Shown here in pieces: positions 6,930 through 11,104 of a stretch of DNA of 15,113 nt. Source of the DNA: Candidatus Hermodarchaeota archaeon. GTDB taxonomy: Archaea > Asgardarchaeota > Heimdallarchaeia > Hodarchaeales > Hodarchaeaceae. Under the pieces are notes generated by a model that saw only the letters and a list, made by a program, of their open reading frames with translations, made no database searches and was not told the DNA's origin. Position 1 is the stretch's first letter, and every line of letters begins with the position of its first letter. A program made the translations under genes and the position numbers. The DNA lies in the NCBI GenBank assembly GCA_048886185.1, contig JBHLKY010000043.1:1-15113 (forward strand). The letters are read 5' to 3'.

Positions 6930-7604
6930 TTAGAGTAAAAATTCAAGAATTGCAATGATAATAGCTGCAATTGGAGGGTTGAATAAATTATCAGCTAAAT
7001 ACCAAGGTAAATCCTCAAAAAAATCAAAAAAACCCCAGACAAATGTGGGAATGAGTGGTAAGATGACCGAAGATACATTAAATCCCCAAACAATCATGAG
7101 AAAACAAAAACCGATCAAGTAATTAGTTAATAATCCCGCAACAAATCCTTCTACAGTTTTCTCTTTAGTAAGGGGTAGTCTAATGTGACCGATCCCTTTT
7201 CCAACTAAAGCTGCGGCAGAATCACCCATTACGGTTGTAATAAGTACTAGTTCCATCACCTCTATCTCATAAAATATGTTTACTCCAAGTAACAGTATTA
7301 GCCAGACAGCTGCAGTTAAAATGTAATTAGCTGGACGATCTTTCTCATAAGCACGTGTGAAATGATTAATCCAGGTTTTAGGATTAAATTTTAAGCGATA
7401 GATTTCCAAGGGGACGAAAAAAAGTAAAAATCCCAATAATGAAAGTTGGATAATCAATAATGAAAATTCATGCTGAAAACCTAATCCTGGAAACACCAAA
7501 TGATAAGCTAACGGAATAGCCCATACTGAAAGATGTATAGATTTCCGACCTACTTCATTGAGAAATTTGAAATCTTCTGGAGTCTGATTTTTGGTATCAA
7601 CCAT
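6930..7604 (-). CDS. CTP-dependent isoprenoid alcohol/diacylglycerol kinase family (dolichol/phytol kinase-like)
   Basis: EVGRKSIHL N-terminal motif and GDSAAALVGKGIG...KEKTVEG signature, with multiple TM segments. Confidence 0.85.
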   Translation of the reverse strand: MVDTKNQTPEDFKFLNEVGRKSIHLSVWAIPLAYHLVFPGLGFQHEFSLLIIQLSLLGFLLFFVPLEIYRLKFNPKTWINHFTRAYEKDRPANYILTAAVWLILLLGVNIFYEIEVMELVLITTVMGDSAAALVGKGIGHIRLPLTKEKTVEGFVAGLLTNYLIGFCFLMIVWGFNVSSVILPLIPTFVWGFFDFFEDLPWYLADNLFNPPIAAIIIAILEFLL

Positions 7605-7623
7605 GGCAAGATCACTTTCAAAG

Positions 7624-9003
7624 CTATTCTACCGTAGGAGGCCGGCCACGAAAGAATTGGAATTTATGATAGTCGTATGGTTCAATTGTTTTTAATAGAT
7701 ATTGAAATAAATCTTCCGCTTTTTTTTCGGCCTCACATACAAAAATATCAAGCGAAAGGTAATCCCATTCAGGCCAAGTATGCAAATGGCAATGACTTTC
7801 AACTAAAATAGCAATAATTGACAAGCCATATGGAGAAAACTCTTTAACGAATATTTCCTCCACGTGAAGTTGACTCTCTGTAATACCATTCCTTATGATA
7901 TTCGTTAGTAACTCAGCATTATTTAGAAATGTGGATTTGACTCCATAAAACTCAGCGATAATCTGATATCCTACTGTTGGGAGATCTTTTACTTTCTTCT
8001 GATTAAAAGTATAGATTGCTGTTTCAGAATGTTTAGTTTCAAGAATACGTAACTTTTGAGGGACAGAGCTTAAAACATACAAATTTGAAGTGTTACCCAA
8101 GATTGTTGCTCCATGGTAACGATTAAAATTCTGAAAAAACTCATCAATTGAAAAACCTGCTTCCAATAAGTGTTGTTGACATACCCAAGTTTCATGAGGA
8201 GATTTTGCTCCAAACGAAACATAACCTCTCCCACCATTTATTGGATTTAGAAGGGTAAGAGCTTGATTAATAAAGAGTTTAAACCCTGGTACTGTATAAG
8301 GTGGATCAGTTTCAAAAGTATCAAACCGATGAAACCATTCTGATGGAAATGATGTACGAATATCCCATAATTGAGTCTTTAAAACAGTTTCCAAGTTTTT
8401 CTCATAAGCGAAAGAATTGATAAATTCTAGGACACGGGGATCTATATCAATAACAAGTATTTCTCTTGCACATTGAAGAAATCCTAATGTTAAGGAAACA
8501 CCGTCATCATCTCCCAATATGGCAATTCTTTTCCCCTCCACATCACCATTTCTAAGCATTAATAGTGCTCTTTTTAACACTGTTTCTGAAAGACTCCGTG
8601 ACTGATCATAATTATAATCAGGAGGAGGCCGTTTATTAAGGTATTCTATTACTGGATTAAAAAACTCTAAATACTGTTTTGAGACCTTTAATGACGAGTT
8701 TTCACAAAATTTTTCAAGAAAATCAAAAGAATAAGATAATCCTAATCTATCATGAATCCAATCATTGGCTGCAGTTGAAAAACTGCTTTTTGTTTTTAGA
8801 AATCCTTTCTTTAACATCTCCCCCCTAACAGCAGAAAGAACAGGAACAGGGATTTGCACATACCTTGAGAGATCTTTATTGGTTACTTTTTGATTTTTAC
8901 GTCTGTACATCTCACGAATAATTCTTTCAACTCCCCTCGGACCTTCTTGCAAGTGGCTTTTCTCTGCAATTGATCTAAAGAAGGTTTGAGGATCTCCAAA
9001 CAT
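7624..9003 (-). CDS. bpsA-speD: Fusion: branched-chain polyamine synthase BpsA (N4-bis(aminopropyl)spermidine synthase family) + C-terminal pyruvoyl-dependent S-adenosylmethionine decarboxylase (SpeD class 1b)
   Basis: BpsA motifs RPPPDYNYDQS, GDVEGKRIAILGDDDGVSL, VIDIDPRVLEFI, RFDTFETDPPYT and FNRY. The SpeD domain (about 7974-7627) shows GYQIIAEFYG, FSPYGLSIIAILVE/SHCHLHTWPE and DIFVC...RG. It is one continuous ORF with no stop between the domains. Confidence 0.9.
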   Translation of the reverse strand: MFGDPQTFFRSIAEKSHLQEGPRGVERIIREMYRRKNQKVTNKDLSRYVQIPVPVLSAVRGEMLKKGFLKTKSSFSTAANDWIHDRLGLSYSFDFLEKFCENSSLKVSKQYLEFFNPVIEYLNKRPPPDYNYDQSRSLSETVLKRALLMLRNGDVEGKRIAILGDDDGVSLTLGFLQCAREILVIDIDPRVLEFINSFAYEKNLETVLKTQLWDIRTSFPSEWFHRFDTFETDPPYTVPGFKLFINQALTLLNPINGGRGYVSFGAKSPHETWVCQQHLLEAGFSIDEFFQNFNRYHGATILGNTSNLYVLSSVPQKLRILETKHSETAIYTFNQKKVKDLPTVGYQIIAEFYGVKSTFLNNAELLTNIIRNGITESQLHVEEIFVKEFSPYGLSIIAILVESHCHLHTWPEWDYLSLDIFVCEAEKKAEDLFQYLLKTIEPYDYHKFQFFRGRPPTVE

Positions 9004-9039
9004 AATAAAAACCTATTATTATTAGCTTTTCATAAATAT

Positions 9040-9990
9040 TTAAGACATTGTCAAGGCACCAGCCAAGAAAGAAAGGACTCCAGACCAAAGCGCTGTTCGA
9101 GTGTAAGTACGCCCTTTTTTACCTGTAGAAACAGATTGATCACGAGATAGAATTAGGACGCTGTAGAATAAAAGAATGATTGTTATAAGCATGAATATTG
9201 TGTAAAAAATATTATTGTGGAATTTAATGAATAGAGGAAGAGGAGCTAAGGTAATTACAGCAAGAAAGAATAGGGAAGCCAATTGTACAGCCCTTTTTGG
9301 CCCATACTTTACAGCAAAAGTGTTGGATTCAGCAACACGATCTCCTTCTATATCCATTATCCCTTTGATTAATTCTCGGCCAATCACACCAAAGAAAGTT
9401 ATCAAAGCCATTATTAATACAATAAGAGTGGTATCTAAATCAGTTCCCCCTTCTTTTCCTGCCATTGCTATCAATGCTAATAAAAAAGGAGCCATATCAC
9501 AGACAGCAACGGTCATGTTACCTATTAAGCCTTTTTCTTTTGTCCAAATATTATATGAAACTGATAGGAAACTAAAAACAGCCACCCCAAAAACTACAAG
9601 CAAATTATCTAGGAATAATAGGAATGAGAGTAAGATTCCAGCCGTTATCATCAACAAAGATAATGTTAAAGCATATTTAGGTTTAAGATCTGGATTCCGA
9701 ACTAAGGGCCTATCCATTCGATTGTTTATTCGATCTGCCTCAAAGTCATGATAATCATTGATAGCCATTGATGCTCCAACAATCAAGAATGGAATAGCCA
9801 GTCCTAATACAGCTAGCTCCCAATATTGCGGAAGAAGCTCCAACACATTATGTATTGTACTCTTAGAAGTATCCTGATGTCGAACTAAAACAACGATCAT
9901 TCCTGCTGTTAAACCAGCTATTGCCCCCATAATACCAAGAGGTAATCGAGTAAGATCATATATATCATGTAGAACGCTTTTTAGGGACAA
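9040..9990 (-). CDS. UbiA-family prenyltransferase, digeranylgeranylglyceryl-phosphate synthase-like
   Basis: First Asp-rich motif SMAINDYHDFEADRIN..DRPL, second motif RELIKGIMDIEGD..TFAVKYG, and many TM helices. The TTG start is supported by AGGAG 5 nt upstream. Confidence 0.85.
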   Translation of the reverse strand: MSLKSVLHDIYDLTRLPLGIMGAIAGLTAGMIVVLVRHQDTSKSTIHNVLELLPQYWELAVLGLAIPFLIVGASMAINDYHDFEADRINNRMDRPLVRNPDLKPKYALTLSLLMITAGILLSFLLFLDNLLVVFGVAVFSFLSVSYNIWTKEKGLIGNMTVAVCDMAPFLLALIAMAGKEGGTDLDTTLIVLIMALITFFGVIGRELIKGIMDIEGDRVAESNTFAVKYGPKRAVQLASLFFLAVITLAPLPLFIKFHNNIFYTIFMLITIILLFYSVLILSRDQSVSTGKKGRTYTRTALWSGVLSFLAGALTMS

Positions 9991-9995
9991 GTAAT

Positions 9996-10000
9996 CTCCT
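9996..10000 (-). promoter_or_regulatory. Shine-Dalgarno site for the UbiA-family gene
   Basis: AGGAG on the minus strand, 5 nt upstream of the TTG start at 9990. Confidence 0.6.
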
Positions 10001-10018
10001 CATGACAAGATAGGCGAA

Positions 10019-11104
10019 CTATCTATCAATTTCACCACGAATAAATGCTTCAACCTTATCACGAGCTTCAAAATCTGGGATTTGTACAGGAGGATGTTTA
10101 AATGCGTAACTCGAAATGGAAATTAATGGGCCAGAGATATTCCTGTCTATAGCTGTTTTAAGTGCACGTATAACATCAATCATTACACCTGCAGAATTTG
10201 GACTATCAATTACACTTAATTTGACTTCTATTGACAAGGGTTGATCACCAAATTTTTTACCTTCTAGGAGTAAATAACAGATTTTTCGATCTTCTAAAAA
10301 TGGAACGTAATCGGAAGGGCCGATTCTTGTAGGAACATCATGAGGTAATAGACTAGTTACAGCTTCAGTCTTACTAATCCGTTTAGTTTTTAATCTTGAT
10401 TCATATTTCATGTTCTCAAAGTCTGTATTACCTCCCACATTAAGCTGAAATGTCTTCTCAATTTCAACGCCTCGATCAAGCATCAATTGAGCTAAAACAC
10501 GATGTAAAATTGTAGCTCCTACTTGAGATTTAATATCATCTCCTGCACAAGGAAGACCTTTCTCCTCAAACCTCCTTGGCCATTCTTTGGTCGAATCTGA
10601 TACAATAAAAGTGGGTATTCCGTTAGCTAACGCAACACCAGCCTCCAAACAAGCTTCAGCATAAATTCTTGTTGCAGCCTCACTTCCCACTGGAAGGAAA
10701 TTAACAAGAATGTCCGCATTTGTCTTTTTAAGTATTTCAGCAATGTTCACAGGTTTCATTTTTGCTTCATCATAACAATGGAATGGTTTGACCATATGAG
10801 GAGGAACACCATCAGAGATAGGGCCAGGGTAAACTAGACTTTCAGTTTCAGGAACTTCAGAGAATTTAGGGGTGCAATTGGGATGGATCCAAATAGCCTC
10901 ACTGATTTTTTTTCCAATTTTGTCCTTATTGACTTCAAAAGCAGCTACAAATTCCAAATCACGTACATGATAGTCGCCAAATTTAACATGCATTAAACCT
11001 GGGACAGCAGAATCCTCTTTTTCATTACGATAGTAATGAACACCTTGAATTAAGGCTGAAGCACAATTACCCAGACCTGCAATAGCGACTCGAATTTTAT
11101 TCAT
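10019..11104 (-). CDS. ino1: myo-inositol-1-phosphate synthase (archaeal/actinobacterial type)
   Basis: IRVAIAGLGNCASALIQG NAD-binding start, with LVNFLPVGSE, GDDIKSQVGATILHR, LNVGGNTDFENM, SKTEAV, GPSDYVPFLEDRK and DSPNSAG motifs. Confidence 0.97.
   Translation of the reverse strand: MNKIRVAIAGLGNCASALIQGVHYYRNEKEDSAVPGLMHVKFGDYHVRDLEFVAAFEVNKDKIGKKISEAIWIHPNCTPKFSEVPETESLVYPGPISDGVPPHMVKPFHCYDEAKMKPVNIAEILKKTNADILVNFLPVGSEAATRIYAEACLEAGVALANGIPTFIVSDSTKEWPRRFEEKGLPCAGDDIKSQVGATILHRVLAQLMLDRGVEIEKTFQLNVGGNTDFENMKYESRLKTKRISKTEAVTSLLPHDVPTRIGPSDYVPFLEDRKICYLLLEGKKFGDQPLSIEVKLSVIDSPNSAGVMIDVIRALKTAIDRNISGPLISISSYAFKHPPVQIPDFEARDKVEAFIRGEIDR

Follow-up and report, generated by a model that had tools for sequence, protein, structure and literature searches.

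A BpsA-family transferase fused to an S-adenosylmethionine decarboxylase domain in Hodarchaeales: a putative self-supplying aminopropyltransferase

In archaea and eukaryotes, polyamines are pictured as products of an S-adenosylmethionine decarboxylase (AdoMetDC, SpeD) and a SpeE-type spermidine synthase. Fusions of an AdoMetDC with an aminopropyltransferase have been described, in which the AdoMetDC is N-terminal and the transferase is of the SpeE type (PMC11107197, PMC12803844); those of Ca. Pelagibacter are active in both halves (PMC11107197). In the branched-polyamine synthase of Thermococcus kodakarensis (Tk-BpsA), a GDDD motif positions the aminopropyl group of decarboxylated S-adenosylmethionine (dcSAM), residues D225, E259, Y290 and Y316 activate the acceptor, and the aminopropyl group is actually carried by the flexible acidic cluster E339-E345 at the C-terminus, a tail that sets the product specificity (PMC12979288). 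Here we describe an open reading frame (ORF) in which a BpsA-type transferase is followed by a SpeD domain. It is located at 7624..9003 on the (-) strand of a 15,113-bp stretch (the window) that was analysed from the contig JBHLKY010000043.1 of a Candidatus Hermodarchaeota archaeon (order Hodarchaeales, assembly GCA_048886185.1). An original prediction for this window had named the protein a branched-polyamine synthase carrying its own donor-making enzyme. The sequence and model comparisons presented below allow us to assume, with moderate confidence, that the protein is a self-supplying aminopropyltransferase and most likely the general polyamine synthase of the organism, not a branching specialist.

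The fusion ORF begins with ATG, contains no internal stops and forms one frame of 459 codons (459 aa) closed by the stop codon at 7624-7626, so that the single intact ORF of the original prediction was confirmed. Its full length is kept in 41 aligned homologues, the most distant of which are 34% identical. In a protein collection clustered at 90% identity, ~65 clusters of ~459 aa contain both domains and are 45–80% identical to the fusion; where named, they come from Hodarchaeales/Heimdallarchaeota metagenome-assembled genomes (MAGs) and are annotated merely as "adenosylmethionine decarboxylase". Since the same frame of ~459 aa was found in these clusters and in 19 of the 21 species genomes available for the genus, including two closed ones, an assembly artefact or a frameshift was ruled out, and no stop separates the two domains.

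Residues 1–115 (8659..9003) constitute an N-terminal, winged-helix-like domain of the BpsA family, which is helical for the most part and has a pLDDT of ~90 in the AlphaFold 2 model; its alignment to Tk-BpsA and to the PF structure 2qm3 starts at residue 50, and the CxxC motifs of Tk-BpsA and of the related forms in families f4 and f7 (see below) are gone. The Rossmann-type transferase core (residues 116–316; 8056..8658) was attributed to the Pfam family BpsA_C (PF01861; residues 116–312, E-value 2.8e-45, 154.9 bits against a cut-off of 27). The match spans profile positions 4–199 of 243 and the final ~44 positions, to which the acidic tail of Tk-BpsA belongs, remain unmatched. Thus, both domains of the original prediction are present, but the BpsA-type domain, stated there to be complete, is not. 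A basic, disordered linker of 26 residues (317–342; 7978..8055; pLDDT <50), carrying Y331-T332, stands where BpsA has its C-terminal lid and acidic tail. The remainder (residues 343–459; 7627..7977) is a class-1b SpeD domain: the entire AdoMet_dc profile (PF02675) is matched at residues 348–453 (E-value 2.7e-25, 89.2 bits against a cut-off of 25), and the NCBIfam equivalog TIGR03330 for the Bacillus-type S-adenosylmethionine (SAM) decarboxylase gives 90.3 bits against a cut-off of 75.65. The model of the whole protein, built from the 41 homologues, has a mean pLDDT of 85.7 and consists of a transferase part (1–316), a disordered linker (317–342) and a compact SpeD domain (343–453). Foldseek matched the transferase part to the BpsA structures 2qm3 and 5xnc (E-value 1e-20) and the SpeD part to the Thermotoga maritima AdoMetDC 1tlu (TM-score 0.88, rmsd 1.8 Å).

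Across the 41 homologues, G164-D165-D166-D167, D233-P-P-Y-T, K267, Y296, E402-S403-H404, H408, W410-P411-E412 and C423 are invariant, which indicates that both halves of the fusion are under purifying selection. The linker residues Y331-T332 are invariant even in 25 distant fusions.

The predicted self-cleavage site of the SpeD half, E402/S403 (7795..7800), was aligned with E62/S63 of the T. maritima enzyme, and H408 of the H408-T-W-P-E412 block (7768..7782) and the catalytic/processing cysteine C423 (7735..7737) with its H68 and C83. The serine, histidine and cysteine (S63, H68 and C83 in T. maritima) are required for self-processing and catalysis (PMC10407285). Self-cleavage into chains of 402 and 57 aa would be the expected outcome; the codons of E402/S403 at 7800-7795 and of the DIFVC cysteine at 7737-7735 had been placed exactly by the original prediction, as had the length of the predicted alpha chain (residues 403–459, 57 aa). 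According to the text and figure legend of PMC10407285, the central block contains one proline whose conservation is complete among true AdoMetDCs but not among their arginine-decarboxylase derivatives, and P411 of HTWPE, the sole candidate seen, is probably this residue. AdoMet as the substrate is favoured by this proline and by the TIGR03330 equivalog score. When free-standing relatives of the SpeD half were sought by a word-index search, only fragments of the same fusion were returned.

The best solved-structure matches of the transferase half are Tk-BpsA and the BpsA of Thermus thermophilus (Tt-BpsA). The GDDD motif, the dcSAM aminopropyl-binding motif of BpsA, is located at G164-D167 (8503..8514), and its middle aspartate is D159 of Tk-BpsA, which contacts the aminopropyl amine of dcSAM. 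The equivalents of D225 (D233, the TDPP aspartate) and Y290 (Y296) are also conserved.

The association of this motif with SpeD was followed through 83 species genomes of the class Heimdallarchaeia. SpeD was found in the genus of the host (19 of 21 genomes, always in the frame of ~460 aa), in the sister family f2 and in family f7, and three arrangements with BpsA_C were revealed: the fusion (f1), bpsA followed by speD (G070), and speD followed by bpsA (f7, with a free 126-aa SpeD gene directly upstream of a BpsA_C gene of ~390 aa). The 31 genomes of family f4 have no SpeD; a BpsA_C gene of ~386 aa lies there beside a gene for a pyridoxal-phosphate-dependent (PLP) decarboxylase of ~425 aa with the LysA/ornithine decarboxylase fold. 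This adjacency was found in the ~30 genomes where both genes were located, with divergent transcription in the five loci inspected (L013 106-2705; L014 1088-3612; L015 394-2953; L021 214-2806; L022 207-2822). Every aligned SpeD-linked BpsA_C protein of f1, f2 and f7 (10/10) has GDDD; the SpeD-less f4 proteins have GDSD (29/30) or GDGD (1/30), and the short paralogues GDMD or GDFD. Among the best 150 representatives of the family search, all 30 SpeD-bearing proteins have GDDD, and all 13 non-GDDD proteins lack SpeD. The loss of the middle aspartate exactly where no dcSAM can be made speaks for dcSAM as the donor of the GDDD forms, the present fusion among them, and for the attached SpeD as its source.

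Some variants were noted in the same survey. The free SpeD of f7 has E-T-H, not E-S-H, at the cleavage site in 9/9 species (L008 886-1266; L009 2380-2760; L145-L151); a threonine would give an alpha-ketobutyryl group instead of the pyruvoyl group, or no processing. In P0091, a 478-aa fusion of the Loki-type clade, the cleavage serine is lost from SpeD and GDAD stands in place of GDDD, which looks like a joint decay or repurposing of the two halves. One idea for the GDSD proteins of f4 is that they transfer the aminocarboxypropyl group of SAM, with decarboxylation afterwards, which would be an undescribed polyamine route.

The host assembly (4.84 Mb, 75 contigs, 96% complete) contains one AdoMet_dc and one BpsA_C domain, both within the fusion ORF, and no second SpeD or BpsA_C gene. 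SpeE was not found in it, and a tblastn search of the host genome with the SpeE pair of a relative was likewise empty. A true SpeE occurs in 1 of the 83 class genomes, as a tandem pair (L028 1402-3155) in the closed genome G058 of the same genus. G058 also has a second, divergent 124-aa SpeD-like gene (L019 705-1079) without E-S and HTWPE, which has no counterpart in the host genome; the pair and this gene are possibly an acquired polyamine module.

Deoxyhypusine synthase (DHS) is encoded in the host genome, along with TiaS and three arginase-family proteins (two agmatinase-like, one arginase-like). DHS normally requires spermidine. The genes for TiaS, DHS and one agmatinase-like protein lie side by side at C3:122724-126169 (L003, L005, L007), and the second agmatinase-like gene lies elsewhere. 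In the relatives G055 and G050 (L025, L026), a gene for a 428-aa PLP decarboxylase is located between DHS and the agmatinase-like gene. Taken together with this decarboxylase, the cluster resembles the SpeY-ADC-SpeB clusters (ADC, arginine decarboxylase) described in PMC13625781. In the host genome, the DHS and agmatinase-like genes are 192 bp apart and the PLP decarboxylase gene is cleanly missing; a tblastn search of the genome found neither this enzyme nor the SpeA-type decarboxylase of other relatives. Its clean absence at the syntenic site and the empty tblastn search led us to reject an incomplete assembly as the reason. No pyruvoyl arginine decarboxylase (PvlArgDC) and no decarboxylases of the alanine-racemase or AAT fold were found in the host genome either. 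Six species of the derived clade in the fusion tree have no such decarboxylase, including the closed G058 and the 99%-complete G065, and the two remaining members, G056 and G066, carry a SpeA-type enzyme. It is also unlikely that SpeE or other decarboxylases were missed through incomplete assembly, the lack being common to six related genomes. In the class as a whole, PvlArgDC was found almost exactly where SpeD is absent.

All these characteristics are consistent with the following mechanism. The proenzyme would cleave itself between E402 and S403, giving a 402-residue chain (transferase, linker and the beta part of SpeD) and one of 57 residues that starts with a pyruvoyl group derived from S403. 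The reassembled SpeD module would decarboxylate S-adenosylmethionine, and the tethered GDDD-type transferase would use the resulting dcSAM to aminopropylate an amine, as suggested by the motif and its co-variation with SpeD. Putrescine or agmatine would thus yield spermidine or N1-aminopropylagmatine, which would serve DHS among other uses, and the same enzyme might add further aminopropyl groups. Because the host assembly has no SpeE and no second BpsA_C or SpeD, the fusion is most likely the general polyamine synthase. BpsA needs spermidine and the host has no other aminopropyltransferase, so in the simplest reading the fusion would carry out the first aminopropylation itself.

It was also considered that the SpeD domain decarboxylates arginine, as SpeDA does, or arginine and SAM together, thus supplying agmatine; in the bifunctional version of this proposal, one polypeptide would convert arginine and SAM to N1-aminopropylagmatine. 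The host needs agmatine, judging from TiaS, DHS and the agmatinase-like genes, yet it has no known ADC or ornithine decarboxylase (ODC) folds, and the lack of the relatives' PLP decarboxylase at the 192-bp gap, shared by six species of the derived clade, one closed and one 99% complete, fits such a proposal, as does the near mutual exclusion of SpeD and PvlArgDC in the class. Switches from SpeD to ADC are known and are hard to see in sequence (PMC10407285). However, the SpeD motifs do not differ in relatives whose genomes also encode a PLP or SpeA-type decarboxylase, and a signature of neofunctionalisation was not found: the ADC-less genomes are not set apart by any substitution in the fusion. 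The HTWPE proline, as far as it can be equated with the residue in the legend of PMC10407285, is kept, GDDD co-varies with SpeD as the use of dcSAM predicts, and in f7 and the basal members of the genus the complementarity of SpeD and PvlArgDC is explained by PLP-dependent decarboxylases. Arginine decarboxylation by the fusion is therefore rather improbable. Agmatine would come from one of three sources: import of agmatine or putrescine, an unknown decarboxylase, or a SpeD domain that also takes arginine. A wider reading, very doubtful as a whole, holds that in the clade without ADC and ODC the single SpeD domain decarboxylates both arginine and SAM, that the fusion makes N1-aminopropylagmatine and that agmatinase-family enzymes turn it into spermidine for hypusination; that BpsA_C, not SpeE, is the ancestral polyamine synthase of Heimdallarchaeia; and that a dcSAM-using GDDD branch exists beside a SAM-using GDSD branch that works with the PLP decarboxylase.

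That the fusion is a branched-polyamine synthase, as originally predicted, is unlikely, despite the structural matches to Tk-BpsA and Tt-BpsA and the conservation of GDDD, D233 and Y296. The alignment to Tk-BpsA stops at Y296 and is followed by the linker and SpeD. The acidic carrier cluster, the specificity determinant according to PMC12979288, was not present in the fusion by Pfam, by the alignment to Tk-BpsA or in the model. This absence suggests a transfer chemistry that departs in its details from the ping-pong relay of Tk-BpsA. An equivalent of Tyr316 may be provided by Y331, which sits in the unaligned region. At the position of the acceptor-site residue Glu259, the fusions have an invariant lysine, K267 (8203..8205), in HMMER alignments to both Tk-BpsA (5xnc) and Tt-BpsA (6j27), with moderate posterior probability. 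When 1.84 billion representatives were scanned in full with HMMER, no fewer than 150 uncharacterised clusters at 50% identity reached 117.7 bits or higher; the score of Tk-BpsA, taken from a separate phmmer search of PDB sequences, was 101 bits. Because the 150th-best match still outscores Tk-BpsA, the transferase half is placed by these scores in a large uncharacterised part of the family and is classified here as BpsA-like rather than BpsA. Furthermore, the host has no SpeE or other spermidine route that would feed a branching enzyme. The name of branched-polyamine synthase is therefore not upheld; a specialist acting on spermidine only is unlikely, and nothing specifically supports branching.

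The distribution of the architecture was followed in a scan of one genome per species. Full-length fusions were found in Hodarchaeales (59–81% identity), in Loki-type "Promethearchaeota" MAGs (31–37% identity, 474–482 aa) and, among bacteria, in a Clostridia MAG and in Vagococcus. The latter include the cultured mesophilic Firmicute V. silagei 2B-2, in which a 445-aa fusion with the same domain order, GDDD and ESHFTIHTWPE is encoded behind a TetR-family gene (L111 4929-6266, NZ_SDGV01000026.1). The original prediction had proposed a search for this domain architecture and a phylogeny of each half. In the tree of the transferase core, the fusions occupy at least four separate clades, and the architecture thus arose several times; repeated fusion or adjacency is classical evidence of a shared pathway. 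In one fusion clade, the zinc-ribbon tail is still present between the two domains; in another, S-N replaces S-H at the cleavage serine. The fusions of Hodarchaeales and of the Loki-type MAGs are sisters in this tree (support 0.95), and the solo genes of f2 are nested among them. For this reason the bpsA-speD pair of G070 is not favoured as a fusion precursor, a secondary split being equally likely. Unfused bpsA and speD neighbours were found in both orders (Putridiphycobacter, Dormiibacterota). Bathyarchaeia matches span both domains, but across ~1.9 kb, and their GDDD ORFs of 547–553 aa lack the HTWPE-type SpeD motif; here, the domains are probably linked, not fused. In one Hodarchaeota MAG, the BpsA and SpeD halves were called separately as P0062 (321 aa) and P0080 (116 aa), on a 22,028-bp contig that is probably the same for both; the two genes may be truly split, or the separation may stem from a frameshift or an error in the assembly.

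No description of a BpsA-SpeD fusion was found in the literature searched by full text, including PMC11107197, PMC12803844, PMC12979288 and PMC10407285, in agreement with the original prediction, whose author knew of no characterised one in this order. The fusion is common, in Asgard lineages and several bacteria, but apparently not described, and it is a real, conserved and widespread variant of two known kinds of enzyme, of whose readings that as a self-supplying aminopropyltransferase is well supported.

The fusion ORF belongs to a same-strand gene cluster (6930-11104, (-) strand) with gaps of 28, 36 and 19 nt. Upstream are genes for an inositol-3-phosphate synthase (10019..11104; TIGR03450, 432 bits, below the cut-off) and a UbiA-family prenyltransferase resembling a geranylgeranylglyceryl phosphate (GGGP) geranylgeranyltransferase (9040..9990; 36 nt from the fusion); downstream is a gene for a CdsA-like membrane protein with a weak match to CTP_transf_1 (6930..7604; Pfam 26.6 bits; 19 nt from the fusion). 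The cluster is conserved in G065, G058 and G069 and partly in G070; the inositol-3-phosphate synthase gene is also upstream of bpsA in G070 and G065, and the CdsA-like gene is syntenic in G058 and G065. A setting among lipid genes was rejected as a general trait of the fusions, as it was not seen outside Hodarchaeales. It is very unlikely that the transferase aminopropylates a non-polyamine, e.g., a lipid head group or a metabolite with an anionic group: the tight conserved lipid cluster of Hodarchaeales and the basic K267 in place of an acidic acceptor-site residue point that way, but no such context accompanies the Loki-type or Vagococcus fusions, and the only characterised members of the family act on polyamines (PMC12979288). 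We know of no aminopropylated lipid of this kind.

Several points weigh against the fusion being a general polyamine synthase. An acceptor other than a polyamine could be indicated by the lysine that replaces Glu259 and by the operon with lipid genes. No gene that would provide the amine acceptor was recognised in the host genome, so that the cell would have to take up putrescine or agmatine or form them in an unknown way. The co-variation of GDDD with SpeD reflects few independent events, most of the non-GDDD forms being one clade, and the equation of the diagnostic proline with P411 is a reading of the figure legend in PMC10407285. For all fusions, the support is computational.

If a BpsA-family enzyme tied to SpeD in this way makes spermidine, the BpsA family would cease to be a speciality of thermophiles, the sampled Heimdallarchaeia would be an improbable origin of the eukaryotic spermidine synthase, and one gene would provide a compact module for producing aminopropylated amines. 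Nearly all of the 83 Heimdallarchaeia genomes have no SpeE, and in many of them the sole candidate is a BpsA-family enzyme fused or adjacent to SpeD. As the same architecture is present in the cultured V. silagei 2B-2, the question is open to direct testing.

A comparison with described systems indicated both shared and distinct features. SpeD fusions to ordinary spermidine synthase, which the original prediction had correctly mentioned, are known from Ca. Pelagibacter (PMC11107197) and eukaryotes (PMC12803844). Like the Hodarchaeales fusion, they unite donor-making and donor-using enzymes in one chain; however, the order of the Hodarchaeales fusion is reversed, with SpeD at the C-terminus, and its transferase belongs to the BpsA_C family (PF01861), which is unrelated to the PF01564 family of those fusions. 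The SpeD half is 30% identical to the class-1b AdoMetDC TM0655 of T. maritima (PDB 1TLU/1VR7), with a TM-score of 0.88, and has equivalents of E62/S63, H68 and C83 and the HTWPE block. TM0655 is a free-standing protein of ~130 aa, whereas the beta chain of the fusion would stay attached to 340 residues of transferase and linker. With SpeDA/SpeDC, SpeD homologues neofunctionalised to arginine or ornithine decarboxylases (PMC10407285), the fusion shares its occurrence in a SpeE-less genome, the criterion used by the authors for such copies, and this genome also has no other ADC or ODC. In contrast to them, the fusion keeps the conserved proline (as located from the figure legend), is joined to a dcSAM-type transferase and shows no change that tracks the loss of decarboxylases. 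BpsA (EC 2.5.1.128; 5XNC/5XNF/5XNH of T. kodakarensis and 6J27 of T. thermophilus) and the fusion have the same Pfam family, fold and N-terminal helical domain and share GDDD, the TDPP aspartate and Tyr290. Despite this, identity over the structural alignment is ~24%, and the fusion differs in having no acidic carrier tail, a lysine for Glu259, no CxxC motifs and an attached SpeD. BpsA is fed by SpeE, and the genome that encodes the fusion has none.

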